A stretch of DNA of 64,000 bases from a virus. Positions 21,164 to 48,931 of this stretch are shown piece by piece. The DNA lies in IMG/VR virus record IMGVR_UViG_2917587430_000001, positions 25,228-89,227 of that record; one strand, 5' to 3'. How positions within the stretch are numbered: position 1 is the stretch's first letter; the number at the start of each line of letters is the position of its first letter. Made by a program: the position numbers and the translations under genes. The notes beneath the pieces were generated by a model. It did not search any database, had not been told where the DNA came from, and worked only from the letters and a program-made list of their open reading frames with translations.

Positions 21164-21615
21164 TGAACCCCCAATTTCACTACCCAAAGCATCTACAGGG
21201 CACTGCTGCACCTTATCTGGAGGCGATCGCCTCAACCCAAGGCAGAGTACCAACCACGTTCCAATACCAGATCAGCACAGCCATTCGCCGCAAACACTGC
21301 AATCCGCCGATCTGGACTGACACTCACTTTCATAACTTCCAAATCACACTTCATCTCCAGGCAGTTCGGGGGGTGAGTGCGATGTATGGCATCGACATGA
21401 TTGAAGTTGAAATGCTGCTGAAGGCATGGGCAGAAGCATTGCCTGAAGTGGTCAATGAACACCCGCTCTGCATTGGCGGAACGACTGAGGATCTGTGCCT
21501 CTATTTTGCTCGAATCGAGCTAGACCCTCACATTCAACTGCTGCGCGTAGACGTGGCAGAAACCCCAGAACGTATTACCAGCCTTCCAATACTGCAAACG
21601 ACCTCTCTTAACTGA
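21163..21615 (+). CDS. Divergent QueD-like (T-fold) protein
   Basis: HCNP...HFHNFQIT, GIDM, TTEDL and VAETP parallel the QueD motifs HGHNY/IDF/PTxEN/ETP; translationally coupled to queE. Confidence 0.65.
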   Translation: MNPQFHYPKHLQGTAAPYLEAIASTQGRVPTTFQYQISTAIRRKHCNPPIWTDTHFHNFQITLHLQAVRGVSAMYGIDMIEVEMLLKAWAEALPEVVNEHPLCIGGTTEDLCLYFARIELDPHIQLLRVDVAETPERITSLPILQTTSLN

Positions 21616-21766
21616 GGGAACGTTACCGCAGATTTAGCATCTACTGCGAGGTTCGACAAGTGATTGAATTCAAAACCCTAACGGCAGGGGTGATTTTGGG
21701 CGCTATCTTTGCGATCGCCCATCTGCCAACTCCCGTTCCCTTCACAGTGGCAGGGAGGCTCTAGTA

Positions 21767-22645
21767 GTGGCTAAGAAGTTTTTGCCTACAGTGGTCTGGG
21801 TGCCAATCGACCAGATCACACCCTATATCCACAACAACAAACAGCACCCACAGAGCCAGATTGATAAGCTGGCGAGCTGCATCATTGAGTATGGTTTTGA
21901 TGTGCCCATCGTCGTGGATGAGGATAACGTCATTCTCAAAGGGCACGGGCGACGGATGGCAGCGCTGAAGCTGGGGCTAACTGAAGTTCCGGTGATTAAG
22001 CGAACTGACCTTACGCCAGCGCAAAAGAAAGCCTGCCGCATTGCTGACAATAAGGTTGCAGAATCCCCTTGGGATTTTGAGGCGTTGAAGTTGGAGATGG
22101 CAGCGCTGGATGAAATGAACTTTGATCTGCAGATGACAGGCTTCAGTCTGGAGGAATGCAGCAGTCTGTTTGACTTGGGAGTGATAGACTTCCAGGGCAA
22201 ACAAATCTTTGGTGAGGATGGGCCACCAACACCCCCCGAACCAGACACATCGCATGAGCTAGATGAGGGGCGATCGCCACAGTTCAGCAGGCAAGACGCT
22301 CACGACGACGATGATCAGTCAGAGCTGGAGCGATCGGACGGCTCATTGCTGGAACTGGTAGAGATTGTGATCGCAGAGCCACGCCACCAGGTTCAACGAG
22401 GTCAGGTCTGGCAGCTTGGCAACCATGTCCTGGTAGTCGCCGATGTCCTCACTGGCTGGCAGTCCTGGAAAGATTACCTCTCCGGCGATGCCATCTTTGC
22501 CCCATATCCTGGTCCGTTCGTGCCACTAACCGTCAAGGGTGAGGAACGACGGCTGGTGATGGTGCAGCCAGACGAGTACATTGCTGGGCACATCCTTGAC
22601 CAATATGAGAACGTCAAGGGGGCTGGTAGTGTCCAGCGGGGTTAA
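21767..22645 (+). CDS. ParB/Srx N-terminal domain protein
   Basis: ITPYIHNNKQH...IDKLASCIIEYGFDVPIVVDEDNVILKGHGRRMAALKLG...RIADNK. Confidence 0.85.
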   Translation: MAKKFLPTVVWVPIDQITPYIHNNKQHPQSQIDKLASCIIEYGFDVPIVVDEDNVILKGHGRRMAALKLGLTEVPVIKRTDLTPAQKKACRIADNKVAESPWDFEALKLEMAALDEMNFDLQMTGFSLEECSSLFDLGVIDFQGKQIFGEDGPPTPPEPDTSHELDEGRSPQFSRQDAHDDDDQSELERSDGSLLELVEIVIAEPRHQVQRGQVWQLGNHVLVVADVLTGWQSWKDYLSGDAIFAPYPGPFVPLTVKGEERRLVMVQPDEYIAGHILDQYENVKGAGSVQRG

Positions 22646-23567
22646 GCGCACCGGTGGGGGAACCTTTGACCCTGCTGAGGAGAATGTTTATTTTCTGGCA
22701 TCTGGAGTAGGACGGCTGGCGATCGCCGAGCCGGTCTATGACCACTTGCTGATTGCTGTGAACGAGCTGGAGGGTGAAGGAGCTCTCCAGCAGATTGAGC
22801 AGTGGTGTGACAGCGGCAAAAAGCTGTTCATCGACTCCGGCATCTTTCACCTGACCCAAGAGCACGCCAAGGCACACCGCTGCTCAATGGATCAGGCACT
22901 TGCCATGCCACCCGACGAGATTGACGGCTTCAAAGAACTGTTGGAGCGCTACGTCGAAATCTACAGGCGACTGGGAGATAAGTGCTGGGGCTTTATTGAG
23001 CTAGACCAGGGCGGACGGGAGAACAAGATTAAGACCAGGGCAATGCTGGAGGAGATGGGCTGCAAACCCATTCCGGTCTATCACCCATTCAACGATGGTT
23101 GGGACTACTTTGACTACCTTGCTGAGCGCTATGACCGCATCTGTTTCGGCAACGTGGTGCAGGCTGATCGGGAGACTCGGAAACGGTTTGTCGCCACTGC
23201 CTGGGAACGACACCGCAAGTATCCTCACCTCTGGATTCATCTGCTGGGGCTGACCCCAAACGAATGGCTCAACGCGATGCCAATCAACTCCGGCGACTCC
23301 TCAAGCTGGCTCTCCTGCGTTCGCTGGTCAAGTGGCTATCGGGAGCGCTGCGCGGGCAAAGCTCTCGGAGACATGCCCCGAAACTTCATGTATGCCTACG
23401 GTGCGGATAAGGACAGTCCCAGAGGCAATAACAAGGCTGTAGCGGCAGCCGCCTATGGGTCATTCATGCAGCAACGTAACTGGCGATCGCATCTCAACAG
23501 CTTAAAGAAACTGGGTTGTCAGATTTACCCCAACCCAGTCTCAGAGCAGCCCCCTACTACTGATTAG
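22581..23567 (+). CDS. DpdA/TGT-like guanine transglycosylase (true start probably a little downstream)
   Basis: FIDSG, IPVYH, HLLG and DSSSW motifs of phage TGT-like TIM barrels; adjacent to que genes. Confidence 0.7.
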   Translation: MLGTSLTNMRTSRGLVVSSGVKRTGGGTFDPAEENVYFLASGVGRLAIAEPVYDHLLIAVNELEGEGALQQIEQWCDSGKKLFIDSGIFHLTQEHAKAHRCSMDQALAMPPDEIDGFKELLERYVEIYRRLGDKCWGFIELDQGGRENKIKTRAMLEEMGCKPIPVYHPFNDGWDYFDYLAERYDRICFGNVVQADRETRKRFVATAWERHRKYPHLWIHLLGLTPNEWLNAMPINSGDSSSWLSCVRWSSGYRERCAGKALGDMPRNFMYAYGADKDSPRGNNKAVAAAAYGSFMQQRNWRSHLNSLKKLGCQIYPNPVSEQPPTTD

Positions 23568-27723: not shown

Positions 27724-29589
27724 TCACTCCGACTCCCAAAGTTCAAGCTGTATATGGTCTTCTGGCAGCCTCTTCAAGGATCTCCTTTTGGGACGGTCTA
27801 CCCCGGTTTTTGCTAACTGTGAGCTGACTACAGGTGTCACCAGTTCACTTGGGTCAGAGGTTGCAAGCACCCCCATACCTCCCCTTGCCTGCGTCTTCCC
27901 ACTCGTAGCGGGGTTTCGGTCAGTTCTAGGGGCAACAGAGTCAGCAACAACGGCTGATTCCTGCAAGTCCGAAGACTTGTACCCTTTGGCTGAATCCTCA
28001 GCAGGTTCACAGACGGCAGAACCGTCAGGCGTAGGCATACGCAAGCCTTGTCGAATTGCCGGGGCAAGTCGCAAGGTTCTGTTTTGGGCGGGCTTAATTG
28101 CGCCACACGCCCCGTAGAGGACAGAGCTAAGGAAGTTGCAACCTCCTACTCCATCCCGATCGCCCAACCACCCACAGCCACCTTTACGAGGATTGCAGTA
28201 GTAGACGCGGTTGCGTGGCTTGTGCCTGCGACCGCAGTTTGGGCAAACTTGTGACGACCGTGCTTCGCTGGCTGTCTCTGTTCCTTCGCCGCCAGCTAAC
28301 AGCAACTTCTCGTCTAAATATTTTACTTGGGTTGGCATTTCCCAAAGGTTGTTTCGACCAACTTGCTTGATCCGACGCTTGCCCTTCTTCCTGGTCTTTG
28401 GCAGTGTCTTCAAGTCACCTACATAAACCTTGCCAACTTTATTTTCAACGCACCAATTAACGGCTGCACGGGTGACGCAATGGTTAGCGTAGGTCAATCT
28501 GACCCGGTAATAATCAGCCGCTTTATGCTGAGAGCGAAGCAACCGCATTTCTCTGCGGCTCCGCTTCTTTAGTCCTAAGTCCTTACGCCGTTGCCGAATA
28601 ATCCGAAACGCATATTTGATATCAGATCCCCGGCGCTTCAACCCCTGACGCTGCCGTTCGTTGTCCCGCTCCTGCAATTCTCGATAGGTTGCTTTTTCGT
28701 CAGGCGATAGGTATTGACGGATTTGACCCTTTAAAACCCGCGATCGCTTGCGGTTGATGCCTCGATAACGCCCATCGCGTTCGCGCTTGAGGGCACAGAT
28801 ATTCTTGCCGCTGATAGTCGCTGTAGTGCCATCCTTCAGAGCCAACACCATTGCTCGTTTCTGCCCAAAGTCAACGGCTGCAACTTCAATTAGTTCAGGG
28901 TTTGGTTCAACTGGTAATTTACGGGTGATGTGCAGGCAGAACCGACCACTGCGAGAGCGAGTAATCTTTACATCACCATCAATCGAAATGTTTAGAAGCT
29001 CTGGTACGCGCAGCTTCAACACGTAGGGCTTTGCGCCTAGAATCAGGCGATCGCCCGAGCGTTTCACCAATTGATTTGTAAAAAACAGAGTGTGCAGACC
29101 TTTGTACCGCCTGGGAAGTTGAGCGTTTGTATCCCCGTTCTTTCGGTGGGTGAAATAGCTAGCAATATTCGCTTCAAAGTCCTGAGTTAATACCACTTTT
29201 GACTGAGCCGGAATTCCATAGTCAGGTTTGGCATTCTTCTCGGTAGCAACGACTAACCGCTCCTTCCCTTTATCCTTTCCCTGTTTAGCGGGTTTGTTGA
29301 CTAACTGCCGAGGGTAAATACTTGATTGCTGAGTGATTAGAGTAATAATCAACTCATCTGCCCAACCTTTACGCCGAATATCAACGTAAGGATCAACCTC
29401 CCAGGCAGGCTGATCCGGATACTCTTCTCTAGCTTGTTTATAGGCACTTTGCTTGTAAGCCAAATGATCGATCAGCAGGTTGTAGATCATCGCACTCGAT
29501 CGCATCATCCCGTACAGCAGTTGCCGCTGCTGTGGTTTAGGATGAAACTCGATTTTTAACGTGCGGGTTTGATAGTGCTGGCTGGTCAT
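27724..29589 (-). CDS. tnpB: TnpB-family RNA-guided nuclease (621 aa)
   Basis: AAVDFG (RuvC-I), YVGDL, SEARSSQVCPNCG...C...CGW zinc finger, DRD (RuvC-III). Confidence 0.85.
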   Translation of the reverse strand: MTSQHYQTRTLKIEFHPKPQQRQLLYGMMRSSAMIYNLLIDHLAYKQSAYKQAREEYPDQPAWEVDPYVDIRRKGWADELIITLITQQSSIYPRQLVNKPAKQGKDKGKERLVVATEKNAKPDYGIPAQSKVVLTQDFEANIASYFTHRKNGDTNAQLPRRYKGLHTLFFTNQLVKRSGDRLILGAKPYVLKLRVPELLNISIDGDVKITRSRSGRFCLHITRKLPVEPNPELIEVAAVDFGQKRAMVLALKDGTTATISGKNICALKRERDGRYRGINRKRSRVLKGQIRQYLSPDEKATYRELQERDNERQRQGLKRRGSDIKYAFRIIRQRRKDLGLKKRSRREMRLLRSQHKAADYYRVRLTYANHCVTRAAVNWCVENKVGKVYVGDLKTLPKTRKKGKRRIKQVGRNNLWEMPTQVKYLDEKLLLAGGEGTETASEARSSQVCPNCGRRHKPRNRVYYCNPRKGGCGWLGDRDGVGGCNFLSSVLYGACGAIKPAQNRTLRLAPAIRQGLRMPTPDGSAVCEPAEDSAKGYKSSDLQESAVVADSVAPRTDRNPATSGKTQARGGMGVLATSDPSELVTPVVSSQLAKTGVDRPKRRSLKRLPEDHIQLELWESE

Positions 29590-33141: not shown

Positions 33142-33155
33142 GTGCTCCTTTGCTG

Positions 33156-33552
33156 GCGATTGCCCTTTACAGCAGCCACCGTTTCAAACTCGATTAGCAA
33201 CTTCAACCTTGATTCAACACAGCGATCGCACACCTTGATTTCAGTTGTCGAGTCATCTAAAGCTTTCCACTGAAACTTCAAGTGCTTTTTGCAGACAAAT
33301 GATGGTTCAGTTGCTAACCCTGCCAGACCTCCCCTTACCCAGACTTAGGTTTTCAGGTTTGCCTACTTTCGTGGTCTGCATTCCACTGAGTTGATTCTAT
33401 TTGGAACGATTCTACAGATCCACCCAAATTAGTCTATTATGCAGAATAATTCTGTCGATCCACCTGTTTTGGAGTGATATACAGAATCATTCTGCCTATT
33501 CTCCGAAACTGGGTAGATAGGTAGAATCGTTCCGTCTAATCAATAGTTAGCT
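33156..33552 (+). repeat. attI-platform repeat, copy C, with attI-like site at 33534-33552
   Basis: Ends GTCTAAT-CAATA-GTTAGCT; begins at degenerate HIP1 GCGATTGC. Confidence 0.85.
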
Positions 33553-33635
33553 GTCTAGTTTCCTACATGAATCAGACAAAGAACTGTGAGGGTGTAGCAA
33601 CAGTTAGTACGTGAATTTTGAGGAAGGCTACTGAG

Positions 33636-34469
33636 ATGTCCAAATGGTATGAAAAGCTGGTACAGGAAACCTATCAAGCCCTTCTCGATCAAGAATCACA
33701 CATCAAGAACATAGTTGTGCAGCACGATGTCAAGTTGACTGGCAAAAGTGGTGCTTCTCACCAGATTGATGTCTATTGGGAATTCAGGATAGCCGATACC
33801 ATCTATCGGACATGTATTGAGTGCAGGAATTATACATCAAACATCAAAAAAAGTAGAGTTGTAGAATTCAAAGGTATTTTAGACGATATAGGTAACGCGA
33901 ACGGAATTATTGTAACTAGGGTCGGTTTTCAAGAAGGGGCTTTAACCTATGCCGAACATCACGGGGTTCGACTACTTCTTATTAATCCCGTGCTGCAAAG
34001 AATAGACGTGAACGTGCATATGGTTATTCCCCAGATAAGTAACATAGGATTTTTGTTCGATTCTTCTCACGCAAAGTTCGTTTTAGAAGCAGCAGGAGTT
34101 GATACCACAAGTATCTTATTGGAGTTAAACGCTTTAGCTAAAGACATTTATCTGTATGATGCCAATGGAAATAAAACACGTAATTTGTCGACAGTGTTAT
34201 CACAGCCTATAGGTAAAGTTGGTCAAATTGTTGTCGATCTTGATAATGAATATCTGGAAACATCGCATGGATTGATAAAACTCAATTCAATTAGTTTTGA
34301 GCGACAGGAAGAGATGGTCGAGAATAAAATTACAATTGGTGGTGGTGAAGATGTTGCTAAGACATTAATCCAAGATGTTCTCGAAAATACATCCAAGTAT
34401 CTTTTCAAGGATGGTGCTGTAGGCAGCGAATCTCGAAGAGACAAATTGTTGCCGCAACAGAACAGATAA
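33636..34469 (+). CDS. Gene cassette: Mrr-cat-like PD-(D/E)xK restriction endonuclease
   Basis: YEKLV...HQIDV...IECRNY...VVEF...GIIVTRVGFQEGA. Confidence 0.85.
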   Translation: MSKWYEKLVQETYQALLDQESHIKNIVVQHDVKLTGKSGASHQIDVYWEFRIADTIYRTCIECRNYTSNIKKSRVVEFKGILDDIGNANGIIVTRVGFQEGALTYAEHHGVRLLLINPVLQRIDVNVHMVIPQISNIGFLFDSSHAKFVLEAAGVDTTSILLELNALAKDIYLYDANGNKTRNLSTVLSQPIGKVGQIVVDLDNEYLETSHGLIKLNSISFERQEEMVENKITIGGGEDVAKTLIQDVLENTSKYLFKDGAVGSESRRDKLLPQQNR

Positions 34470-35254
34470 TCGGGTCGCCGGAGGGTTTTCCCCTCCAGCT
34501 CCCACAGCACCCCGCATGCGGCTCCGCACGGGGCGCTTCCTCAAAGAGGTTTAGACGGTTTGGTTCCGAAGAACCAATGTCCAGGGCTGGTTACGCAATT
34601 AAGCGCCGACTATTTAGCTCCCCCATCCGGGTTCATCGCCACGTCGAGCTTTACGACTCCTCCCCGCTCTCTGAAGTTCGGCCCTTCACCGTGTCTCATC
34701 CATTACGATGAGCGTTTGGCTACTATGGCTTCTGCTGACTTCTGCTCAATTACACAGGGCGTTTCCATACCTGTGCGCTGTCTGCTTTTCCTTAGGGTTC
34801 TGTGGCTACCTAACCGTTTCCAGTTAGACCTCAATCAGACTCCCGTAGAAGCTTAGACCGCCATTTGAGCAGATCTCCCCGGATAAGAACGTGAACTGTC
34901 CCTGCACAACCGCGTCATTTACTGCGTTCCCTGAACCAGGGGGCTTCGTTGTGTTGTGCCAACTTGCCCTAGGACTATCTCAGCCTTCTATGACGTTTCT
35001 GTTCGTCGGCTCACAGGTTTGCCTCCAGCTTCCTTCAGACATTCCCTCGCGAGTTTGCCCTTGCTCTTGGCTAGTGGTTGTCGTTACTCGGCTCCAATAC
35101 TTTCGAGCATTTGAACGCTGGTTCCACCACAGAGGACTTTCACCTCATAAGTTCACGCCCATGCCGGGCGTACACAACCCGATTGGAGCGGGCTACCGAG
35201 AGATATTGGTGGTGATGAAAAGGTTTTAATAGCCGCTCAATCGGAACGTTGTGC
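34464..35254 (+). other. attC site interrupted by the intron
   Basis: Splicing out restores AGATAAC-AACCCGATTGGAGCGGGCTA...TAGCCGCTCAATCGGAAC-GTTGTGC. Confidence 0.85.
34469..35173 (-). mobile_element. ORF-less group IIC-attC intron (705 nt)
   Basis: 5' GTACGCCCGGCATGGGCGTG...GAGGTGAAAGTCCTC; domain V/VI GAAGCGCCCCGTGCGGAGCCGCATGCGGGGTGCTG...GACCCGAT; target TTGT/TA; no RT ORF. Confidence 0.85.
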
Positions 35255-35714
35255 CACCTCAACCTGTTCATAGAGGTATGCATTTGAAAATTATCTGTTT
35301 GAGTGCAAAGTTCTAAGGATCTTGGCAGGCTAAAGACGTGGTAGTAACCTTTGAACAGCTTTGGGCGATCGCCCTTTACGTTTCAAACTCAATTAGCAAC
35401 TTCAACCTTGATTCAACATAGCGATCGCACACCTTAATTTCAGTTGTCGAGTCATCCAAAGTTTTTCACTAAGACTGAAGCTTCAAGCGCTTCTTGCAGG
35501 TTCAGGTGCTTTAACCCTGCCAGACTTTCCCTTGCTCTTACCCAGTCCTAGGTTGTCAGGTTTGCCTACGTTCATGGTCTGCATTCCACTTAGTTGATTT
35601 CATTTGGAAGGATTCTGCCGATCCAGCTAGATCGTTTATTATTCAGAATCATTCTGTCGATCCACCTGTTTTGGAGTGATATACAGAATCGTTCCGTCTA
35701 ATCAATAGTTAGAC
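35248..35714 (+). repeat. attI-platform repeat, copy D (complete), with attI-like site at 35696-35714
   Basis: Runs from attC core GTTGTGC to GTCTAAT-CAATA-GTTAGAC. Confidence 0.85.
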
Positions 35715-36101
35715 CACTAGATTTCGGTTGAAGCGGTTCTTTAGAGATATCTGTGGGTGTATCTGACTTTTCTCTGACCTTTTGCTGACTTTGCACGGCT
35801 GCCAAAGTCAATTTGTGAAGGTTAGGGTAGATTCAATTTCAAGTGTTGTGCCAAATCATTCTGCCTGTCACCCTCTATGGGATCTTAGACGGAATAGTTC
35901 TATCTACATAATAGATAGAAGCCCATTACTAGAGGTGAAATTGCTAAGTAGCTTTAGGCTGATTTACTTCAAATCTTCCGGTTTCCAATCCATGAACAGA
36001 GGAAGTTCGGTTAAGTGTATCAGGTTACGTGCACAAAGCAAGGATCAATCGACATTCAAAGCAAGTTTTCCTACAGTCGTTCAACCAGCATAGAGAGCAT
36101 T

Positions 36102-38541: not shown

Positions 38542-38582
38542 ATAGATTTGGATTGTCACTAGCAAAGCTGTTGCGCCAAGCG

Positions 38583-38667
38583 CTCTAAATTCCAATGCAC
38601 CGGAACAAAGTCAAATGATCAGTGAGTTGCAGAAGTTGTCTGTGTCCGGTGATTGGAACCGTTAGCT
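38583..38667 (+). other. attC site
   Basis: CTCTAAA-TTCCAATGCACCGGAAC...GTCCGGTGATTGGAACC-GTTAGCT. Confidence 0.8.
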
Positions 38668-38720
38668 AGCTTGAGTAAATGAGAAAATTCTATGAAAGAT
38701 TATAGTCAACATTATTCAAG

Positions 38721-39818
38721 CTAAAAGATTGAACCCTGCCAAACTTCCTCAGGGTCGTTCTTTCCCTTGCGTCTGCGCTTCTTGATGGGTTCAAATCGCC
38801 ACTGGTTCTCTGCGTCGTGTTCTGTCCCTGCCAGATATTCAGCCGCAGCGGGATTCTGATCGGCGGTCGCAGTCATGGAGTCCGAGGTAGCTTCACTGTC
38901 GCCATGAAGCAGTTCAGAATCTAGGAACGGCAGTGGCTTGACCAGCCAGGGAGCGTAGAGATAGCCGTTAACTAGGGCAGCTTTAATTACCGTGTCGTTG
39001 ATGTCCTGCCCATACAGCCTCAGTGAGTAGTTGGAGGCAGTCAGCAGCAAGCGACCGGTACCCAAGCATGGATCGCATACCGTCTCCAGTCGCGAATCGT
39101 GGCGACCCCTTGCGGGTATCTCTGCGAGATCGCCAGAGATGACATCATGCATCAACACCTGGGTCATCAGGATGCAGACGGGCATGGGAGTTGGGTAAAA
39201 CCCTGAGCGCTTGCCGAAATGGTTGATTGCCAGGATGTCTCCCAAATAGTCGTGAGGGTAGGCAGTCAGCAGATTCAGATTGAACATCTGATAGAGCCTC
39301 ATGCTGGCTCCGCTACATCCGCTCGGTTCATCGGGCAGGTCATAGCCTGGGTGACCAAACCCAAACAGTAGCCAGTCGAGGAAATAGTTCATGTATGTCC
39401 AGCTCGACCAACCTTGCCAACCCCCCGAACCGCAATTAGTAACGAGGTCTAAGCAGCGCTCCAAATGCTTGTGCCCTTGCTGGTCAAATAAATGGCGACT
39501 GTGTTCATCTGTTGCCCATTCGATTTTGGGAATCGGGCGATCGCCTAGTTTCTGAGTCTCCATCAACTCAACCCAGTAGACCCAGCGCTGCCACGTCAGT
39601 TCATCGGCTCGAAGTAGGTAGGGAAGGAGCCAGCCCCGTTCCAAGTTGCGCTGTAAGTTGGGGTCAAGCTTGTATTTCTGCCGCGCTTTAAGCTGCTCCC
39701 TAAGTTCTGCGCGAAACCATGACAATCTATCCCGTGACTCTTCCTGAGCCGGGATGCTATCGCTGTTCATTATTGAAGTTGCCTTAAATCTTGTTGCTTG
39801 ATAGGTGGCGATCGCCAT
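38721..39818 (-). CDS. N-6 DNA methylase-like protein (SAM-binding part only)
   Basis: GFYPTP...VCDPCLGTGRLL...LYGQDIN; no NPPY/F motif visible. Confidence 0.7.
   Translation of the reverse strand: MAIATYQATRFKATSIMNSDSIPAQEESRDRLSWFRAELREQLKARQKYKLDPNLQRNLERGWLLPYLLRADELTWQRWVYWVELMETQKLGDRPIPKIEWATDEHSRHLFDQQGHKHLERCLDLVTNCGSGGWQGWSSWTYMNYFLDWLLFGFGHPGYDLPDEPSGCSGASMRLYQMFNLNLLTAYPHDYLGDILAINHFGKRSGFYPTPMPVCILMTQVLMHDVISGDLAEIPARGRHDSRLETVCDPCLGTGRLLLTASNYSLRLYGQDINDTVIKAALVNGYLYAPWLVKPLPFLDSELLHGDSEATSDSMTATADQNPAAAEYLAGTEHDAENQWRFEPIKKRRRKGKNDPEEVWQGSIF
39105..39128 (-). repeat. 24-nt SDR5-like element inserted in a HIP1 site (in frame within the CDS)
   Basis: GCGAT[CTCGCAGAGATACCCGCAAGGGGT]CGC. 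Confidence 0.7.
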
Positions 39819-39921
39819 CCAGAGCGCAGCGCTTCACTCTGGTGGGTTCATGTGGCTAGGCACAACGTCTCGCTTGCGATCAAAGGCTTTACACCACCCT
39901 TGATGGCGATCGCCAAACTTG

Positions 39922-40677
39922 TTAAGCGGACATCCGAGCTTCAGCAGTCTCTACGGTGTCTGCCTTCTTGAAGCTAAATGCCAGGTTGTAGAGTTCAGTC
40001 CAGTTCAGTTCTCCAGCATCGTAGGCAGTCCGGATTTTGCTGGAAGCCTCATACAACTCATACGCCTTAGCAATCACTTTGGTGTAGTGAGCCGACTTGC
40101 CCACAGTTTCCCCGGCTGCTTTGGTGTCACCGTTGCAGCGGACTACTGCCTCATAAACTTCTCTGGCTTGAGCCAACTTCTCTGCCGGGTCAGTAATCCG
40201 AGGTGTTCCGGTTCGGGGGGTGCCACCTCTGCGAGTTTTGGCAGGTTGGGCAATGGCGATCGCGGTCAGCAATTGCTTGAAGGCTCCAAAATTCTCTAGC
40301 AGGTAAGTTGCTTCGGCACAGCTCCCTACATTGGCATTCTCATCCAGGTAGAGGATCAAGCGTTGTTCATAGGTCAAGTCAGACTTTTGCTCCTCAGCCT
40401 CCAGCTCCGGTTCGGGGGGTGCTACCTCTTCAACTTCGACTTCAACAGCAGCTTCAGAATCATCATCTGTAGCAATTGCCATTTGCTCAAAGTCTTCTTC
40501 ATCGTCAGATTCAACCTGATCTTCAACCTGCCCTTGAGCAAACAGAATCCAGTCAATTAACTGTGCTTTCGTGTCGCTTGGCTCAAACTCAATCTCCAGT
40601 CCAGCAGCAATGTTCTGGAGTTTGGGTTTGGTCATTTCACGGGTGGTCAGTTGGTCGCGAGTGTAGGTGGTAGTCAT
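39922..40677 (-). CDS. Hypothetical protein with N-terminal HeH/Rho-N-like domain, acidic linker and C-terminal HTH-like region
   Basis: YTRDQL...KPKLQNIA...DTKAQLIDWIL. Confidence 0.6.
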   Translation of the reverse strand: MTTTYTRDQLTTREMTKPKLQNIAAGLEIEFEPSDTKAQLIDWILFAQGQVEDQVESDDEEDFEQMAIATDDDSEAAVEVEVEEVAPPEPELEAEEQKSDLTYEQRLILYLDENANVGSCAEATYLLENFGAFKQLLTAIAIAQPAKTRRGGTPRTGTPRITDPAEKLAQAREVYEAVVRCNGDTKAAGETVGKSAHYTKVIAKAYELYEASSKIRTAYDAGELNWTELYNLAFSFKKADTVETAEARMSA

Positions 40678-40723
40678 TGTTTTGCCTTGATTAATGTCTA
40701 GTGAGTTAACGGTCAAGCGGTCA

Positions 40724-40909
40724 TCAGTTAGCACGTTGGCGGTCAGCTTTTAGCTGTTGAATGTAATCCGGGAAGCGTTGACCCAACAACACGTTCTCAA
40801 TCAGGAAGCGGCGATCGCCTTTGGTCGATAAACACAGCTCAGAAACGAGCTTGGTCAGTTCTTCGGTGGTCATCGCTTCAAGTTGTTGAACGGTGTAGTT
40901 GGTAATCAT
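40724..40909 (-). CDS. Small helical protein, paralogue of 29629..29814
   Basis: High visible identity to 29629..29814. Confidence 0.65.
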   Translation of the reverse strand: MITNYTVQQLEAMTTEELTKLVSELCLSTKGDRRFLIENVLLGQRFPDYIQQLKADRQRAN

Positions 40910-41757
40910 CTCAGTGCCTCGTTTGCTTGTGATGCCCCTATCCTCACCAGCTTTTTTGGTAGTGTCAGCAGCAATCCAAGTGTTTTACGATTCGAGTTAC
41001 TGACAGGTTTTAAGTCACTCCATCAGCTAGGCGAATCAGAGTTTTCAGGCATCAAAAAGAGCGCTCGACAGCAGAAGTCAGGCGCTCAATATGAGGAGTA
41101 TTGAAAACCAAATTAACTGACATTCAAGAATGCCAAAGCCAATTCTCCAAGTTGGACAGGCCTTCTGATTCAGTGCCTTGGCATATCTGTTCTTAGTGAT
41201 CCGCCAGTTGTGTACTTCACTTTCCTCCAACTTCCAACTTTCTGTCGGATCGCTTTCACACCTTTCGTATCAAGGTTCTTAGGGGTTGAGAGAGCAGGGC
41301 GATCGCAATTTAAGTCGGATGAAGCCGACTTAAATTGGAAAGATGTCGGTCTTGTCGGAGAAATTCAGTTTTTTATCGCCTTTACGGGGTGCAGTTAAAC
41401 GAGACTTGTCGCCTCACTAAATGTGTAGAGAGATCAGAGGCCCTAAGTTAAACTTTGCCGTCTTTAGGGGCACTTGAAAGGGATCGGATACGGCTTGAGG
41501 ATCATCGTGGGAAAGGAAGTAGTTGAGGAATTCCCTCACATTTAACAATGATGTGGGCGATCGCCCATACTCTTCACCCCAGATATCCGCGTGTGGATTC
41601 CCCTCACTGTCATGCCAGATGCCCTGGCTCTTAAAGTACTGAATGCCAGCGTAGGGAATGCCCAGCATCAGGACAGCGGCGATCGCCCAGTTGCGCGCTG
41701 TTAAGGTTGGAAGACTGAAGTATAGATAGTGTTTGGGAACCCTATAGTATACAGGCA

Positions 41758-41842
41758 CCCCAACTCTACGTTGGAGCCGACGAACACCGTTGGCCCGACG
41801 ACGCGAATAAGCGGCATTCGCGGCTCAACTCCGCTGTTATGC
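41758..41842 (+). other. attC site
   Basis: CCCCAAC-TCTACGTTGGAGCCGAC...GCGGCTCAACTCCGCT-GTTATGC. Confidence 0.85.
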
Positions 41843-42124
41843 CGCTTATTCCTTGCTGGGGCACAGCTGAAAGATTTTCTGGAGGCGTTGAGGATTGGGG
41901 GACTATAGGGTTAGTGGTGCAAGAGCTAAAGATGGTTGTTCAGGGGCATCGGCCATTGAGTATTAGTGTTATCTATAATACAGTTTGAGCGATGAGTATT
42001 GAGGGGTTGATGCATTAGCCTGTGGTGCCCCTGTACTACACAGTTGTCGTTTCATAGCACAATGTTGCAAAATGAGAGAAATTCGGTTTGCCGAGTGATT
42101 TTTTACACCCTCACCCTTGCGCTT

Positions 42125-43135
42125 ATGTCAGAAGATTCCCAGCGTAACTCTGCTTTCAATGCTGCTGTGAGTTCAAAAGTTCATCACGCTCAACTAAACG
42201 ATACTGGCAAGTACACACCAGAAAAGTTAGGGCATCTGTACAGAGGTGGTATACGTACTGGTGCAGGGCGAACCGAAGCGCAAGCTCAACAAATGTTAGA
42301 CAAAATCCCACCTTCTCAGAGGGCTGGAGTTGATGGTCAATCCGCTGCTGCTAAAGTCAAAGAATATTTAGCTGATAAGGATGCTAGTCATATAAAACCA
42401 CATAGTAAAGGTGGTTCAAGTCATCCAGATAATATCAAATGGGAAGGTAAAACTGCTAATCGTGCTCGTGGCGATCAACACATGACCAGCCAAGAGCAAA
42501 GACAACTAAATGTTAAGGCACAAGCTGATAACATACGTGGAGCATTGAAAGCTGGTGTAGAGGCTGCGTCCAAAGGAGCAGTAATTGGTGCAGTAACAAC
42601 GGCTCCTTTCTCTATGCTTAGAAATGCATTGCGAGTTGTACGAGGTGAAATGTCAGCTCAAGATGCTGCTCTAGAAACTGTAAAAGAAACTGCTGTTGGT
42701 GGGGGAGTTGGAGCTACAACAGCATTTACGGTTACGGCGGTAGCATCTGCTTGTCCTCCTATTGCTGTTGCATTAACAGCTATGTCACCAGTTTTACTTG
42801 CTGCTGGTGGTGTTGGAATGGTATGTGAGTTTTTCAAGATTCTTGGTGACCATAAGCAGCAGGTGAAAGAGTATTATTCATCATTGACTCAGAGAGAACT
42901 GCAATATCTCCAGGATGTTGAGAGTGAACTTCTGTACGAACACTCTAAGAATTCAGAGTTTCTGAATAAGTCCGCAGAATTAAACGCTGAGATTACACAC
43001 AGACCTATCGAGTCTGGTGTAGAAGGTGCATTAAAGCGATATCTTGAGTCTGCTGCAATTGCTAAAGCTTTGGGAGCTACACCAATCGGTAATAAGCAGT
43101 TGCCTGTTTCAAAAAAAACTTTGCCCTCAGCTTAA
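42125..43135 (+). CDS. Gene cassette: HNH-like nuclease domain plus Gly/Ala-rich membrane hairpin
   Basis: DASHIKPHSKGGSSHPDNIKWEGKTANRARG; hydrophobic GAVIGAV...AGGVGMV. Confidence 0.6.
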   Translation: MSEDSQRNSAFNAAVSSKVHHAQLNDTGKYTPEKLGHLYRGGIRTGAGRTEAQAQQMLDKIPPSQRAGVDGQSAAAKVKEYLADKDASHIKPHSKGGSSHPDNIKWEGKTANRARGDQHMTSQEQRQLNVKAQADNIRGALKAGVEAASKGAVIGAVTTAPFSMLRNALRVVRGEMSAQDAALETVKETAVGGGVGATTAFTVTAVASACPPIAVALTAMSPVLLAAGGVGMVCEFFKILGDHKQQVKEYYSSLTQRELQYLQDVESELLYEHSKNSEFLNKSAELNAEITHRPIESGVEGALKRYLESAAIAKALGATPIGNKQLPVSKKTLPSA

Positions 43136-43159
43136 TAATTTTAGGATTGGTAAATACTT

Positions 43160-43651
43160 ATGTTTTTTCTGCTTCCTTTAGTTGGTGCGGCAGTTGGTGC
43201 AGCAGTTGGTGCTCTTGTTACTCATGCTAGCGGCGAGAAAGATAGACAGGCGGCAGAGCATCATAGAAAAGTTGCTAATGACTTGACCAACAAATTCTCA
43301 AATTTAGAGAAAAGATACAGCGAATATGCCGATAAGAGTAAGAGTCAAATTGATGACTTGACCAGGCAACACGCTTTAGATGAAGCAGAGAAAGATCTTC
43401 TGCGTTTAGCCATCAGGTTGCAGCAGAGCTTGTATATGCTTATGTGGGATATAGATAATAAGCCTACATATGATGCTTTGATAGATTTTGAACAAGCTGT
43501 TGAGGCAACTAACAGAGTTTTATCCGAGTTAAGCGAGGAGAAAATTCAAATCCCAAGTAAGTACTTTTCTCGCAACCTGACACGGGTTAAGAGGCGTGAA
43601 AAGCTCGCTGAAACGAGGCAGAAGAAAATAGAAAGTAGCAGCGCGGCATAG
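43160..43651 (+). CDS. Gene cassette: membrane-anchored coiled-coil partner protein
   Basis: MFFLLPLVGAAVGAAVGALV; the stop lies in attC R''. Confidence 0.7.
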   Translation: MFFLLPLVGAAVGAAVGALVTHASGEKDRQAAEHHRKVANDLTNKFSNLEKRYSEYADKSKSQIDDLTRQHALDEAEKDLLRLAIRLQQSLYMLMWDIDNKPTYDALIDFEQAVEATNRVLSELSEEKIQIPSKYFSRNLTRVKRREKLAETRQKKIESSSAA

Positions 43652-43732
43652 CAATTCGGGTGCAGCGGATTGACCGAAGCCGCTTGGGTTAGATGCAAAG
43701 ACCTCGGCAACCGCTGACCCGACTCGTTAGGT
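43646..43732 (+). other. attC site
   Basis: GCATAGC-AATTCGGGTGCAGCGGATTG...CAACCGCTGACCCGACTC-GTTAGGT. Confidence 0.85.
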
Positions 43733-43790
43733 GGAATTTGAGACATCAATTAGAACATTAAATACCTCTAAAGTTGAGGCTAGTACAAAA

Positions 43791-45635
43791 ATGTTAAAAG
43801 ACAAAGCGGTGATCATTATCGCAGTATCAAAATATGCTGGTACTTATGACAATCTTCCAGGGGCAATAACAAGTGCTAGGAGACTGCGTGAATGGGCTGA
43901 ACAGTCTGACGAAGACTGTAAATATAAAGTTCTTTATCTAGCTGATGACGTCTTTGAGAAGATTGACGTTCAACTCGTGCGCGAACAAGTTAGCCAATTT
44001 GTTAACAGTAACTTCATAGATCGACTCATCGTCTATTTCGCTGGACATGGCATTGTTCGCTCAGCTGGTGACCAGTTTTGGCTTCTTACCAATGCGGCGC
44101 AGGATCTACGAGAAGGAATTGATGTAGAAGCCTTTAGGCGGGGTTTACTAAAATGCAATATTGGTAATGCTGATTTTGCAGGTCAATTGTGCATTATTGG
44201 TGATGCCTGTCGAAATACTGGGCGAGATGCTATCGAATTTTACGGTGATCCAATTCTGACTTCGACAGCAAAGAGGAATAGTCGTATTCAGCTTGATAAG
44301 TTTCTGTCCACAGGGCTTGGCAATTACTCATTCCAAATCAATCAAATTGGTAGTCAAAGTGCGTACTGTCTGTTTTCGGAGGTGATGCTGAGTGCCTTGC
44401 GAGGCGAAGTTAAGGAAGCAATTGACACGGAAGACCATCGATTCAAACCAGTTATCACAAATCATAAACTAGCTGAATATTTAGAGAAAGAGGTCAGAAG
44501 TCGTGCTGCTGCAATTGGAGAGGAGATGGAGCCTGATCTGCTTACTGGAATCCATCCTCCCCATAACTTCTACAAAAGATTAAAGGAACCGATTTCTGAT
44601 GTAATAGCTAGTTCGCAAGATTCGCAACTGGCGGCAGCAATCCAAATGGCAATACATGATCCCCATCCAGAAAGCAGTAATGAGAAACTTACAGCAGCTC
44701 AAGAAGGTCGTAAACAAACTCTTTTGGGATTGAAAGACCGTATTAAATTGAACTATTCCCGACTATCAATCAGAGTTAGACGTCGTTTCGATCCTAATAA
44801 TCCTAATTTTTTAACTGTTAGTGATTTTCGCCCAAACTTTATAGCTGTACCTCGTAGTGCAACGGTTGAAGTGGCACATCGGGAAGAAACACTCTATGAG
44901 ATACTAGCGTTTAACTGTTACGATTCGCCTATTTTAATCCACCAAGATGGACAATGGATAATTATTCCTAATTACCTCAATGTTGTTGCTGTCATATCTC
45001 GCAATTTACCTGGCGACATCTTATTCTTTAAGACTGGACATTTTACTAAACGAGATGAAGTGTGGGATACATATTTAAGTGATTTTTCAAATCTTGCTGG
45101 CAGTGTTCCATTACGCGCCGCAGAGGCTAAAAAATTTGCAGATAGGGTTAGAGTGGGAAAAGAGGAATATCCTCATCAAGCAGTGACAGCAGGATATCTT
45201 TATGAATTTTCCAACGACTACGATAATATTGCTAGAACTGCACATTATATGGCTAGAAACACAGATTCGGTGCCATTCGATCTAGCACTACTATGTGCAG
45301 ACAAAATATGGTGGAGTAAAGAAAATGGCAGGTTGGTCGCATTTGCAGATCTGCCAGCCGTTGAACCCTCACAACCGAGTGAGCAAAAGGATAATCGCCC
45401 CTATTATGCTAGACGTGAATTTGCGGCACACAAGAATGTCCAACTTTGGGGAATTACACCAATCTTTCGTCAGGGTTGGAGTTTTATGCAGACTGAACTA
45501 TACCTTGATATTCCAGACAAGATCAGGTTAATTAGCGAAAATATGATTGGGAGATCGGCAGCAAGCTTAACAGATGAGGGACTTAGAATGTTTCTTAAAG
45601 CCTTTGACTATCGAGTTATTGAGATTGACACCTAA
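43791..45635 (+). CDS. Gene cassette: caspase-family (C14) peptidase with uncharacterised C-terminal domain
   Basis: VIIIAVSKY...LPGA...VYFAGHG...IIGDACR (His-Cys dyad). Confidence 0.85.
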   Translation: MLKDKAVIIIAVSKYAGTYDNLPGAITSARRLREWAEQSDEDCKYKVLYLADDVFEKIDVQLVREQVSQFVNSNFIDRLIVYFAGHGIVRSAGDQFWLLTNAAQDLREGIDVEAFRRGLLKCNIGNADFAGQLCIIGDACRNTGRDAIEFYGDPILTSTAKRNSRIQLDKFLSTGLGNYSFQINQIGSQSAYCLFSEVMLSALRGEVKEAIDTEDHRFKPVITNHKLAEYLEKEVRSRAAAIGEEMEPDLLTGIHPPHNFYKRLKEPISDVIASSQDSQLAAAIQMAIHDPHPESSNEKLTAAQEGRKQTLLGLKDRIKLNYSRLSIRVRRRFDPNNPNFLTVSDFRPNFIAVPRSATVEVAHREETLYEILAFNCYDSPILIHQDGQWIIIPNYLNVVAVISRNLPGDILFFKTGHFTKRDEVWDTYLSDFSNLAGSVPLRAAEAKKFADRVRVGKEEYPHQAVTAGYLYEFSNDYDNIARTAHYMARNTDSVPFDLALLCADKIWWSKENGRLVAFADLPAVEPSQPSEQKDNRPYYARREFAAHKNVQLWGITPIFRQGWSFMQTELYLDIPDKIRLISENMIGRSAASLTDEGLRMFLKAFDYRVIEIDT

Positions 45636-45691
45636 CAACTAATACATCAACGAAACATTCTACCTTTCAATACTATTTGGAGCATTTGTTA

Positions 45692-46597
45692 ATGACAACA
45701 GTTCTTTTAATTCACGGCATTAATAATCAGGGTAATTCAAAGGATAACATTGAAAAAACGTGGAGTTATGCCCTTAGAAGCAGTGCTGCTACCGCAGGAC
45801 TAACGATACCTGATGATGTGAAATTTATTGCAGCGTTCTATGGCGACGTACTCTTTAACGAAACAGAATCCTGGAACAAGAACAAACCTACTTCAAGTCC
45901 TATGAGTGTCGAATCTCCGGACGAAGATTATGCGGATGATGAAGTTGCGGCTTTATATCTTGAATTCCAGCAAAAATATGGTATCGGCGATGAGCAAGTT
46001 TCTCGGGAACTTGAGGCTGAAGATAATCTTCAAGCTCAAAAGCGCATGGCTAAAGGAATTCATAAGAGGTGGTTAAAGGCGATAGCGAAAGCTTTGGAAA
46101 CGGTACTTCCTTCAAAGGGTAAACGAGTAGCAGCAGCTTTTATAAGTCAAGCTGCCGCATATCTTCATAAGCCCGGTTTAAAGGAAAAAGTTGACGATCT
46201 CGTTATGACCCAAGTGATAGACGGACTACCAAAAGATGAAAAGGTTGTTATTATTAGTCATTCCCTTGGCACTATTGTAGCTTATGACTTAATGCGCCGT
46301 CTTAGGCATCAAGTAAAGGTTGGGTTGCTGCTAACTGCCGGTTCACCTCTTGGGATTGAGATAGTCAAACGTAGGCTGGGTACACCGCTTATCTGCCTTC
46401 CAAATGTAGATAAATGGGTAAATATATCAGATGATGAAGACTTTGTTGCCTTCCAAACAAAGCTAACTAGTACGACTTTTGGATGTGATAAGATTGTAAA
46501 TATTGATCAGTTAGATAATGGCGATGAAGATGCACACGATATTCTGAAATATCTTGCACATGATATTGTCGCAAAAGAAATTGTGTTGAATCTCTAA
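45692..46597 (+). CDS. Alpha/beta-hydrolase (lipase-like)
   Basis: LIHGI...ISHSLG nucleophile elbow, LTAGSPL, W.N..D.EDFV, terminal AH...YL. Confidence 0.85.
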   Translation: MTTVLLIHGINNQGNSKDNIEKTWSYALRSSAATAGLTIPDDVKFIAAFYGDVLFNETESWNKNKPTSSPMSVESPDEDYADDEVAALYLEFQQKYGIGDEQVSRELEAEDNLQAQKRMAKGIHKRWLKAIAKALETVLPSKGKRVAAAFISQAAAYLHKPGLKEKVDDLVMTQVIDGLPKDEKVVIISHSLGTIVAYDLMRRLRHQVKVGLLLTAGSPLGIEIVKRRLGTPLICLPNVDKWVNISDDEDFVAFQTKLTSTTFGCDKIVNIDQLDNGDEDAHDILKYLAHDIVAKEIVLNL

Positions 46598-46657
46598 CTG
46601 GACAAACAAATTAGTCGATTGTGAACATTTAGTTTGACATTTCCACTACACTATTCC

Positions 46658-46743
46658 ACCTAACCCTTACATGCACCGGACGGACTGGACACCTCTGGCT
46701 TCGTTTAAGTGACATCTGACGCCGTTGATGTCCGCCGTTAGCA
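46658..46743 (+). other. attC site
   Basis: ACCTAAC-CCTTACATGCACCGGACG...GACGCCGTTGATGTCCGCC-GTTAGCA. Confidence 0.85.
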
Positions 46744-47205
46744 GTTAACATCATTGCCGAAAATGACCCTTCTCGGCATTGTTTGATTCAATGCCCATAT
46801 CAAAAGCCTCTTTCAGACATAGATTTAGGCTTTACTACTTACAGTACTCAATGGTCATTTTCGGCAGAGTTAAGCTGTTCAGACGTGGAAGGGGCAATCG
46901 CTCTATCTTCTACTGATACCTACCCATAAAAACGGGTAGCTTCCCGACTATCTCAAAGCCAAAGGAGGCGGGATGATACATCCATATCAAAGCCGCCGAC
47001 CACGCTTTACAAGGTCGGCATATAGAAAAACAAAGCCCTGACCGGTAAGGTTAGGGCTTATTGTTTTGGTCAACGTCTTAAATAGCGTGACTAGGGCAGC
47101 AGGGCGATCGCCCAACTCCTTCTCAATAAAGCCGATTGGGTCATTGGTGTCCCGTGTCACCATTGCCGCAACTCCAGCTCACCCCTAGCCCGAATTTGAT
47201 CCCCT

Positions 47206-47724
47206 TCAAGCGACAGCAAGGACATTGCGTGGGTTCTCTCCAGCGGCTAATCTCTCAAGCTGCTCATCTGAGAGATTTGAATAATCAATTTTGACGTTGA
47301 GCTTGGTTTCCTCCTTCTCACCTAGAGCAGTTTTTCCAATCTTTTGAAGTCGCTCTAGCGCCTTGGCTAACTCATCCAACTGTTTGGGAGATGGTAGATC
47401 ATTGCCTTTTGCCACTCCTTCAGTTGCTTCTTTAAGTTGCATGAAAACAAGATTCAAGCCGCCTTTCGCAAGTTCATAGCACTGGGCATCCCATGCAGCT
47501 AAGTCGCCCGCTAAAGCAGTCGATTTGTGTTCCTGGCGTTTATCTGAAACAGTTTGAACAAAACGCTCAGCCTCAACTTTCCAATGCTCTTTAGCTGCTT
47601 TTTCCCGCAGATATGAGGGCGAACAGGTATACTTCGCAGCCAATTGCTCTAAGGTTGGACGAGACTTCTCATCCGGAGCCTGGACGTATTCATCTTTGAT
47701 GACCTGCCAGTTGTGCTTCGCCAC
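47206..47724 (-). CDS. Terminase small subunit-like protein
   Basis: HNWQVIKDEYV...TLEQLAAKY...LREKAAKEHW HTH; C-terminal DYSNLSDEQLERLA. Confidence 0.65.
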   Translation of the reverse strand: MAKHNWQVIKDEYVQAPDEKSRPTLEQLAAKYTCSPSYLREKAAKEHWKVEAERFVQTVSDKRQEHKSTALAGDLAAWDAQCYELAKGGLNLVFMQLKEATEGVAKGNDLPSPKQLDELAKALERLQKIGKTALGEKEETKLNVKIDYSNLSDEQLERLAAGENPRNVLAVA

Positions 47725-48238
47725 TTTCCCTCAGCTTCCTGCAATTTCCGACTTTCTGTCGGATCGTTCCCACGCCTTGTGGGGTGGGGTTTTCACGGAC
47801 ATGGAAAAGGGTAGGGCGATCGCATTCAAGTCGGTTAAAGGCAACTGTTCTGGTAAAAATGCTGATCTTGCCAAAGATCTTTAACTTTCTGAAGTTATAA
47901 AGGGAACACCAGATCTTCATCGACCAGTGCAACAGATGGCAAAAATCTTTTCAAGGCGAACTGAGGAACAGGAAAAATTTCGTCAGGATCTATGCTTGGT
48001 TATTCAATCTGAAGAAGAGCGCAGGATTCAAGAGCAGTCTGCTGAACGTCTTGTCATGCCTATGACTTTAAGTACGTGGGAAGACGACTGGAAGAGTTGA
48101 TTTCAAGCTGCTTACCGGCAGTATAACGATTCACTCGGGTTGGATCTAAGGGTTTAACATTGCGGAAGCTAACATATCAGCTTCATTCAGAAGGAGCTGG
48201 GCGAGTAGCTGACGGAAGAACAGCGGGCGATCGCGGCG

Positions 48239-48329
48239 GTATAACATATTTCCTGTTGCGCCCGACCATTGAAAAGTTATCGGTAGATTATTCGAGGTTG
48301 TCTACAGTGGGTTAAGCGGAACGTTAGAC
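48239..48329 (+). other. attC site (degenerate)
   Basis: GTATAAC...TTGCGCCCGACCATTG...CAGTGGGTTAAGCGGAAC-GTTAGAC. Confidence 0.6.
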
Positions 48330-48433
48330 CACAAGATCTCGGTTGGAATGGTGCTGTAACCGCTCTAAGTATCAATAGGGAAACCGCTCTAAGTGCTAGC
48401 TTTGAATGGATGATTGCAATAAGGAAAAATTAG

Positions 48434-48931
48434 GTGTCAAAAGGCATCCCTGCAAAGCTTAAAAAGGTTTCAGTTAAACTCCCATTTGGTATTGGTGGAG
48501 CAGAATGGGAAGCCGACTCGACAGAACGCAAAGCGGCTTGGGCGATTTATGTTGAGTTAGTTACTCGCATCGCTGTTCAAGACCTTGATAAAGACCAAGG
48601 ACTTTTGCGAGAGTTGCTAAACTCGCTACATAGTTTGTTTGGTATTACACGTCAAATCCTGCGGGAAGCTGGTCCAGATGTTGGTGCATCATACGAATCA
48701 GTTGGGGGTACAGCAATTACTGTCCTTAACAGAGGACTACGCCCTTTTTTGTCTACATGGCATCCTGCACTTCAGGCATGGGAGGCGCAACGCCCTGTAA
48801 ATCTTAGTCCAAAAGAGCATGAGAAGAATTGGATTCATGAACCTAAATTACGTAGTGAATTAAAATCCCTTAATCTAGATTTAGAGCAATATGCTAATGC
48901 GTTAGCAGAGATAGCTGGAGTTAAGTGTTGA
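48434..48931 (+). CDS. Gene cassette: conserved-looking helical hypothetical protein
   Basis: ERKAAWAIYVELVTRIA...LNRGLRPFLSTWHP; co-cassette with SIR2-TIR. Confidence 0.7.
   Translation: MSKGIPAKLKKVSVKLPFGIGGAEWEADSTERKAAWAIYVELVTRIAVQDLDKDQGLLRELLNSLHSLFGITRQILREAGPDVGASYESVGGTAITVLNRGLRPFLSTWHPALQAWEAQRPVNLSPKEHEKNWIHEPKLRSELKSLNLDLEQYANALAEIAGVKC

Follow-up and report, generated by a model that had tools for sequence, protein, structure and literature searches.

The window analysed here is a stretch of 64,000 nucleotides that corresponds to bases 25228-89227 of a 113.6-kb IMG/VR virus record, and it contains four diverged copies of an ORF-less repeat, referred to here as platforms A to D (Table 1). 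A sequence-only reading of this DNA had placed repeated elements of about 460 bp at these four locations; a repeat search combined with a self-BLAST of the whole record retrieved no other copies of such length, and the coordinates of the four have been refined. Alignment of the copies revealed that they are mosaics of three segments, S1 (35249-35379), common to A and D, S2 (35379-35500), common to A, C and D and found in part in B, and S3 (35500-35714), common to B, C and D. Nucleotide identity is 91-94% between B and C and 80-85% between D and either of these. The copies have no ORF in common and differ by indels (6, 10 and 40 nt), evidencing that the repeat is non-coding. A mini-ORF of 12 codons (MHL[K/R]IICLSAKF) with a GAGG Shine-Dalgarno sequence 5 nt upstream was noticed in S1 (35276-35320 in D; 17245-17290, minus strand, in A), and may be a leader peptide or a chance occurrence.

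Table 1. Location of the platforms, attI-type modules, attC sites, introns and recombinase genes (window positions unless marked "genome"; R1, covariance model of attC sites; R2, sequence model of the module)
Feature	Position	Strand	Remarks
Platform copy A	17055-17316	-	Consists of S1 + S2; attI module absent; flanked by attC a and the Xer-like recombinase gene
Platform copy B	19397-19735	-	5'-truncated at the stop of phage backbone ORF 19740-20234
Platform copy C	33148-33552	+	Most of S1 deleted; preceded by a short hairpin and GTTTGTGC
Platform copy D	35249-35714	+	Fullest copy: S1 + S2 + intron-like core + attI module
attI-type module of B	19394-19562	-	R2 116.7 bits; heads three minus-strand cassettes
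attI-type module of C	33387-33555	+	R2 119.1 bits; 4 boxes centred at 33408, 33448, 33488 and 33528 + simple site
attI-type module of D	35596-35717	+	R2 81.3 bits, E 4e-24; 3 boxes + GTCTAAT-CAATA-GTTAGAC
Degenerate fifth attI-type module, E	35813-35919	+	R2 42.3 bits, E 5.5e-12; GTT mutated to GAT
Partial inverted module pair	genome ~97.73-97.83 kb (L017 8730-8830)		Outside the window; R2 42 bits
attC a	17306-17398	-	R1 85.8 bits; R' (GTTGTGCC) is the start of copy A
attC d	35166-35258	+	R1 74.9 bits; R' (GTTGTGCC) is the start of copy D; bottom-strand group II intron at R'' end
attC sites downstream of B	18594-18686, 17874-17967, 17306-17398	-	R1
First intact attC downstream of D/E	38580-38671	+	R1; closes the peptidoglycan-hydrolase cassette
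Further attC sites	41755-41846, 43643-43736, 46655-46747, 50298-50390	+
Complete ORF-less group II intron, ~709 nt	34468-35176	-	In attC d; Rfam RF02001 128.8, RF01998 50.7, RF00029 45.9 bits
Intron domain 1 fragment of D, ~100 nt	35499-35590	-	Antisense to the cassettes
Intron domain 1 fragment of C	33304-33396	-
Intron domain 1 fragment of B	19553-19650	+
Xer-like tyrosine recombinase, 341 aa	15892-16917	-	XerC model 104.9 bits; PHROG integrase; adjoins copy A
IntI N-terminal relic, about 47 aa	55110-55253	+	TIGR02249 22.3 bits, model positions 2-47

The copies are arranged in two arms, with A and B (minus strand) and C and D (plus strand) flanking a 13.7-kb early region, and B and C form a 234-nt inverted repeat that is 94% alike. 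Prophage relatives identified through the backbone ORF at which copy B is truncated (L108-L111) contain neither the platform nor attC sites, indicating that the arrays described below are additions to that backbone. When the Xer-like recombinase was taken as the lead, no relatives were found. Other genes of this part of the record include, between platforms B and C, a cluster for DNA modification of 7-deazaguanine type (20486-23567, plus strand), which encodes radical-SAM QueE-like, PTPS/QueD-like and weakly ParB_N-like proteins, and, in the phage early region, a gene for a 621-aa TnpB/Cas12-like protein (27724-29589, minus strand) with a Cas12f1-like TNB domain and an OrfB_IS605 HTH, which adjoins a DUF932 gene and has no TnpA nearby. 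The record is rich in internal duplications, among them that of a 2645-aa ORF (window 55496-63433; genome 6471-14468) with 78-85% nucleotide identity.

attC sites, cassettes and integrase relics

A relaxed hairpin scan together with inspection of the intergenic regions uncovered a family of imperfect palindromes of ~90 nt with YCTAAC-like R'' and GTTAGRY-like R' sites. The alignment of six of these sites from the window showed invariant TG.A.CGG / CCG.T.A / CGTT cores in L''/L', an unpaired G in L'' and compensatory changes in 9 of the 14 stem pairs; in two sites the R' is GTTGTGC, departing from RRRY. The covariance model built from these six (R1) recognised 12 sites in the window and four elsewhere in the record, in oriented arrays: three on the minus strand at 17.3-18.7 kb, six on the plus strand at 35.2-50.4 kb and three on the minus strand at 51.2-54.0 kb. 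By every sequence criterion tested, the window sites are attC sites. A scan with the strict RYYYAAC...GTTRRRY pattern had returned a single site, and this lone hit and the Xer-like recombinase raised the suspicion that "attC" and "attI" were over-read terms, which was dropped after the relaxed scan and the covariance model.

Each of the three platforms that carry S3 is followed by attC sites in its own orientation: three on the minus strand after B, attC d after C, and five on the plus strand after D and module E, the latter (38580 to 50390) scoring from 75.7 to 32 bits with R1. Module C heads a cassette with an Mrr-like gene. The R1-attC-bounded cassettes at 43731-50266 encode a caspase-like protease with an alpha/beta hydrolase and a TIR-domain protein, and neighbouring cassettes an Mrr-like nuclease (33618-34469) and an N6-methylase-like protein (38721-39818, reverse orientation).

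No intact integron integrase (IntI) was detected in the 113.6-kb record, the best match to the TIGR02249 profile (cut-off 265) spanning ~45 aa with 31 bits. The Xer-like recombinase, the only full-length tyrosine recombinase, scores 22.9 bits with the same profile (cut-off 265) and, judged by these matches, is probably a phage integrase and not an integron integrase. What the record does contain are three relics of the IntI N-terminus of ~45 aa, evidenced by the TIGR02249 profile and by tblastn with cyanobacterial IntI proteins. One of them lies in the window (55110-55253), divergent from the minus-strand attC sites at 51240-54039, and R2 gave no match beside it. The other two are located at genome positions 15969-16091 and 92967-93110; all three are embedded in larger repeats with 84-88% identity, each being oriented divergently to minus-strand attC sites, and none is accompanied by a recognisable attI module. 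Thus, the attC arrays of the record adjoin IntI relics only, and a functional IntI with the IntI-specific domain, as a complete integron has, is missing from it. The earlier description of an "integrase-less" attI-like site heading cassette arrays holds for this record, in which only relics and the Xer-like recombinase are present. Since the record has no integron integrase, insertion and excision of cassettes would need IntI in trans from the host. An IntI may also lie just outside the record, which is perhaps an incomplete prophage region.

The R'' end of attC d is occupied on the bottom strand by a complete ORF-less group II intron, located immediately past the stop codon of the Mrr-like gene; copies that are near-identical to it or related are found in four unrelated metagenomes. 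Contigs from these four metagenomes diverge at 34467 and at 35176/35177, confirming both ends of the element, which thus appears to be a mobile intron that is, or until recently was, active. A shorter stretch of ~100 nt related to group II intron domain 1 is part of copies B, C and D. It is 73-79% identical to introns on plasmids of Fischerella, Acaryochloris, Kovacikia and Oscillatoria, at about 110-230 nt from their 5' ends, and is best read as debris of an earlier intron insertion. On plasmid pOSC7112.02 of Oscillatoria nigro-viridis PCC 7112 (L010), a group II intron with ltrA splits an iscB gene just downstream of the HEARO/omega RNA of that gene (RF02033, 146 bits).

The homology of the ~100-nt core to intron domain 1 (E down to 2e-12 against the plasmids) and its orientation, the same as that of the complete intron in attC d, are what an intron-derived origin of the repeat would predict, either as a decayed group II intron or as a non-coding RNA on the opposite strand; a MITE or transposon end would agree with the 131-nt box region being an imperfect palindrome with terminal inverted repeats of 10-13 nt. 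These origins are extremely improbable, since only ~100 of the ~460 nt are intron-like, which led to the rejection of the whole repeat as an intron remnant. The repeat has no GUGYG 5' end and no domain 5/6, Rfam gave no match to it on either strand at E <=1, hitting the neighbouring intron alone, and folding of both strands gave unconvincing z-scores of -1.5 and -2.1. By the criteria that identify the element at 34468-35176 as a group II intron, the repeat itself is not one. Moreover, the module described in the following section occurs beside intI in other genomes with no detected intron core, and the MITE or transposon reading is contradicted by the lack of a target-site duplication.

The 3' module and its cyanobacterial homologues

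The tail of S3 consists of 13-bp palindromes of the form CAGAATnATTCTG with an exact period of 40 nt, four in B and C and three in D, followed by GTCTAAT-(C/T)AATA-GTT. This common terminus and the divergence beyond it had been proposed from the sequence and were corroborated by the alignment, identity among B, C and D being 74-90% in the last 60 nt and 48-60% in the next 60; the break is imperfect for B and D, for which a weak similarity of about 57% persists ~45 nt past the GTT. Metagenome contigs that carry the module in other contexts diverge at 33549-33552. Copy A ends without the GTT terminus, as the sequence-only reading had implied, and was not matched by R2 with filters off.

In general terms, the module is composed of three or four boxes (C-R-GAA-nnn-TTC-Y-G) at 40-nt spacing and a simple site, (G/C)YCTAAT-(n)AATA-G↓TTA, in which the arrow marks the probable cassette joining point. 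The sequence model R2, built from 15 sequences, recovered the modules of B, C and D as well as a degenerate fifth one (E), which starts right after a second GTTGTGCC at 35845 and is preceded by a degenerate attC. The ~135 nt between the attI-type site of D and module E (35711-35845) form a "mini-cassette" with little beyond a degenerate attC, comprising an L''-like TTTGCACGG, a TGAAGGTTAG centre and an R' GTTGTGCC. In the pair at ~97.7 kb of the genome, two attI-type ends face each other in a ~23-bp inverted repeat with an 11-nt loop (GGATTCCCTCTAATAACAGTTGA ... TCAACTATTATTAGAGGGAATC) and one flanking box unit. The box region was also considered as a long variant attC; this was rejected, as the terminal GTT has no R'' AAC partner and R1 scores do not exceed 9 bits.

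Of the 401 cyanobacterial genomes sampled, 16 have homologues of the module, as does one metagenome contig. The same 401 genomes yielded no homologue of S1 or S2, an S2-like stretch being present in one soil metagenome. The repeat matched none of 50,697 phage records by blastn, exact-pattern scans for its conserved 22-24-mers in viral and genome collections gave nothing, and among public sequencing runs the locus is absent, with at most 10% of its words in any run. A scan with a two-box pattern returned 89 loci, none homologous by blastn, which were discarded as chance matches. In ten aligned loci, namely the metagenome contig (L112) and nine others, the homologues share ...CTA(A/T)T-(n)AATA-GTT(A) and then continue into unrelated sequence. 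The sequence-only reading had named a BLASTN search across cyanobacteria as the check on whether divergence always begins at this GTT, and conservation indeed stops after AATAGTT(A) in all ten. The bases that follow AATAGTT (AGAC, AGGC, AGCC, ATGC) resemble the remainder of an R' site, often of RRY type (GTTAGAC, GTTAGGC, GTTATGC).

The position of these homologues is informative. Genomes G159 and G295 together contain four full-length intI genes, which score 459-474 bits (cut-off 265), and at each of them the module stands between the divergent intI and the first attC, 0.2-1 kb farther on. R1 detected 8, 2, 1 and 2 attC sites of 40-85 bits beside the full-length intI genes of loci L143-L146, and in L145 four boxes with the 40-nt period and TAATAATAGTTAGC are found about 60 nt from the intI start. 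Application of R2 to the upstream regions of 20 further intI genes gave five matches at 36-44 bits and a weak one, in the expected place and orientation. Altogether, of 24 full-length intI loci, at least 10 have the module in the attI position. R2 gave no match at about half of the tested cyanobacterial intI loci, so that the module is either the attI of a subset or represented too narrowly by the model; the loci with no match probably have diverged attI sites or elude such a model. The module also occurs away from intI: copies heading attC arrays with no intI were found in four genomes (G086, G337, G159 and G295), R1-family attC sites follow in the same orientation at four module loci (L133, L135, L139 and L140), and in G086 a truncated module stands directly after an attC. 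An IntI remnant was absent within 7 kb at nine of ten intI-less module loci of other genomes, indicating that orphan attI heads recur in these cyanobacteria and are not peculiar to this record.

The attI identity of the module is strongly supported by synteny in many genomes. None of the window copies adjoins an intI, the position by which an attI is recognised, and the module family does so elsewhere. On this basis, the terminal ~120-170 nt of B, C and D likely represent the attI of a cyanobacterial integron family that heads attC-bounded arrays and requires IntI in trans. The claim that the ~460-bp platform as a whole is an attI is thereby narrowed to this 3' part; the upstream ~350 nt (S1, S2 and the domain 1-like fragment) are element-specific and do not belong to it. 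If so, the record would have at least three intact attI heads and a degenerate one, each heading attC-bounded cassettes with no adjacent IntI, and the integrase could come from a host with integrons of the same attI and attC families.

The box array could be read instead as a mere promoter or operator for a dimeric transcription factor that travels with genes and is no recombination site. The regular phasing of the palindromic 13-bp boxes would fit such a function, as palindromic boxes are equally suited to a dimeric transcription factor and to a recombinase, and so would the AT-rich, -10-like hexamers found upstream of every box. In the metagenome contig, which matches the module over its last ~107 nt and departs from it at the same GTT, the ATG of a LysE-type gene follows some 20 nt downstream, and no attC is detectable there. 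Even so, an operator with no recombination role is very unlikely: at 10 or more loci the module is placed between intI and the first attC, conservation ends at GTT plus R'-like bases in ten, and attC arrays follow downstream in the same orientation. Scans for the promoter that the sequence-only reading had allowed for in the platform, and for terminators, gave no excess over shuffled controls. Promoter and recombination roles are, in any case, compatible, attI regions normally holding Pint and Pc. In a module that acts as an attI, the boxes would most likely be accessory IntI-binding or architectural sites overlapping the promoter region. Canonical modules have a core-site-like GTGTT(A/G)TGCC 5' of a box, which may be a secondary IntI crossover.

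Boundaries and possible mobility of the platform

As proposed from the sequence, copies A and D start exactly at an attC core, the G↓TT of the attC sites at 17306-17398 (minus strand) and 35166-35258 (plus strand), respectively. Between A and D, identity rises from 58-60% in the 30-90 nt that precede this GTT to 97% in the 60 nt that follow, and the 70 nt beyond are 93% identical. TTGTGCC is assigned to the platform because GTTAG.. is the ending of the remaining attC sites. Copy D thus extends from the G↓TTGTGCC of attC d to AATAG↓TT. A 5' boundary of cassette type, at the G↓TT of an attC, is found in A and D, is doubtful in C, which is preceded by a hairpin and GTTTGTGC, and is absent from B. 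The platform has no attC of its own at the 3' end, R1 with filters off giving only matches of 4-9 bits at the platform ends. With 5' ends of A and D that coincide with attC crossover points (G↓TTGTGCC), the platform is bounded on both sides by IntI-type junctions.

From this junction anatomy it is plausible that the platform moves like a cassette and seeds new arrays, as the sequence-only reading had proposed. Excision by attC x attI recombination would yield a circular platform in which an attI is reconstituted (AATAG↓TTGTGCC); by integrating at any attC, such a circle could give an existing array a new head in its interior. The different attC sites upstream of A and D could derive from later attC x attC exchange and not from two platform insertions. 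It can tentatively be hypothesized, as a possibility rather than an expectation, that the platform is a new mobile integron part that has an attI in place of the attC, is excised by the host IntI through attC x attI recombination and is re-inserted at attC sites, where it would found integrase-independent array heads, and that its 40-nt-phased boxes represent an undescribed attI architecture of a cyanobacterial integron family.

A more conservative explanation is that the platforms are static relics of decayed integrons from which intI was deleted, multiplied by segmental duplication, inversion or homologous recombination, and that they never moved site-specifically. The symmetry of the two arms around the early region, with the B/C inverted repeat, and the many further internal duplications of the record are compatible with such a history; the IntI N-terminal relics, here and in L138, evidence integron decay, and it is accepted that CALIN elements (clusters of attC sites lacking an integron integrase) can arise through rearrangement and intI loss (PMC4889954). 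Duplication alone may perhaps account for the two-arm symmetry, but it does not explain junctions that are exact to the base at the crossover point: the left ends of A and D match G↓TT to the base in attC sites that are only ~59% alike, further attC-to-attI junctions occur at module E and in G086, and nine of the ten intI-less loci elsewhere have no intI remnant. An entirely static origin is therefore considered unlikely. If the reading of the platform as a mobile part were true, a phage or any other replicon could nucleate and grow arrays using the host integrase, and a mobilisable platform would offer a new way for integrons to propagate.

Relation to known integron components

The individual components, that is attI, attC, CALIN elements and integron parts in phages, are already known (PMC4889954; PMC9892861). 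A limited literature search found no description of an attI family of cyanobacterial integrons with a 40-nt-phased palindromic array, of several intI-less attI heads in one element, some of them after an attC, or of such arrays on a cyanobacterial phage-like element. A conserved attI family with a phased box array makes the sites of cyanobacterial integrons searchable, and the finding that intI-less arrays can keep attI heads, even in several copies, bears on the origin of CALIN elements and on cassette capture in trans.

Only a handful of integron classes have a known attI site. The attI1 site of class 1 integrons carries the IntI1-binding repeats DR1 and DR2. Like attI1 and attIA of Vibrio cholerae, the module family is located, in other cyanobacteria, between a divergent intI and the first cassette, has two inverted boxes around G↓TT and repeated accessory elements upstream, and is followed after TT by cassette bases of R' type. 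It differs in the accessory region, which comprises three or four boxes with a strict 40-nt period over ~130 nt as compared to ~65 bp for attI1, the module being known here from its sequence alone. Also unlike attI1 and attIA, three intact copies and degenerate ones occur in a single element, none beside intI and some within arrays after an attC.

As an integron gene cassette does, the platform has its 5' end at G↓TT after an attC, lies within an array and, like many chromosomal cassettes, has no ORF; it is unlike a cassette in lacking a 3' attC, its 3' site being of attI type. The complete ORF-less intron, which occupies the bottom strand of attC d at its R'' end, recalls the group IIC-attC introns, and the intron-like stretch of the platform is likewise in antisense orientation. 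Unlike those introns, the platform has no more than ~100 nt of domain 1, more similar to ORF-containing introns of cyanobacterial plasmids than to the resident intron.

The arrays are similar to CALIN elements (Cury et al. 2016, PMC4889954) in being attC-bounded with no nearby intI, and IntI pseudogene relics occur elsewhere in the record; they differ from them in that the intI-less arrays here keep a recognisable attI head, in tandem and inverted repeats. Integron components have also been described in bacteriophage genomes, in the form of attC clusters and cassettes for which exchange with host integrons through the host IntI was proposed (PMC9892861). The present element resembles those phages in combining attC clusters and cassettes with a phage-like genome. 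Cyanophages are apparently outside the coverage of that study and multiple intI-less attI heads are not described in the parts considered here, and the element is set apart from the phages described there by the presence of at least 16 attC sites in 113.6 kb. A phage-like element that carries defence-type cassettes (TIR, caspase-like, Mrr-like nuclease, methylase) together with a lysis-type hydrolase set points to a traffic of cassettes between cyanophages and the integrons of their hosts.
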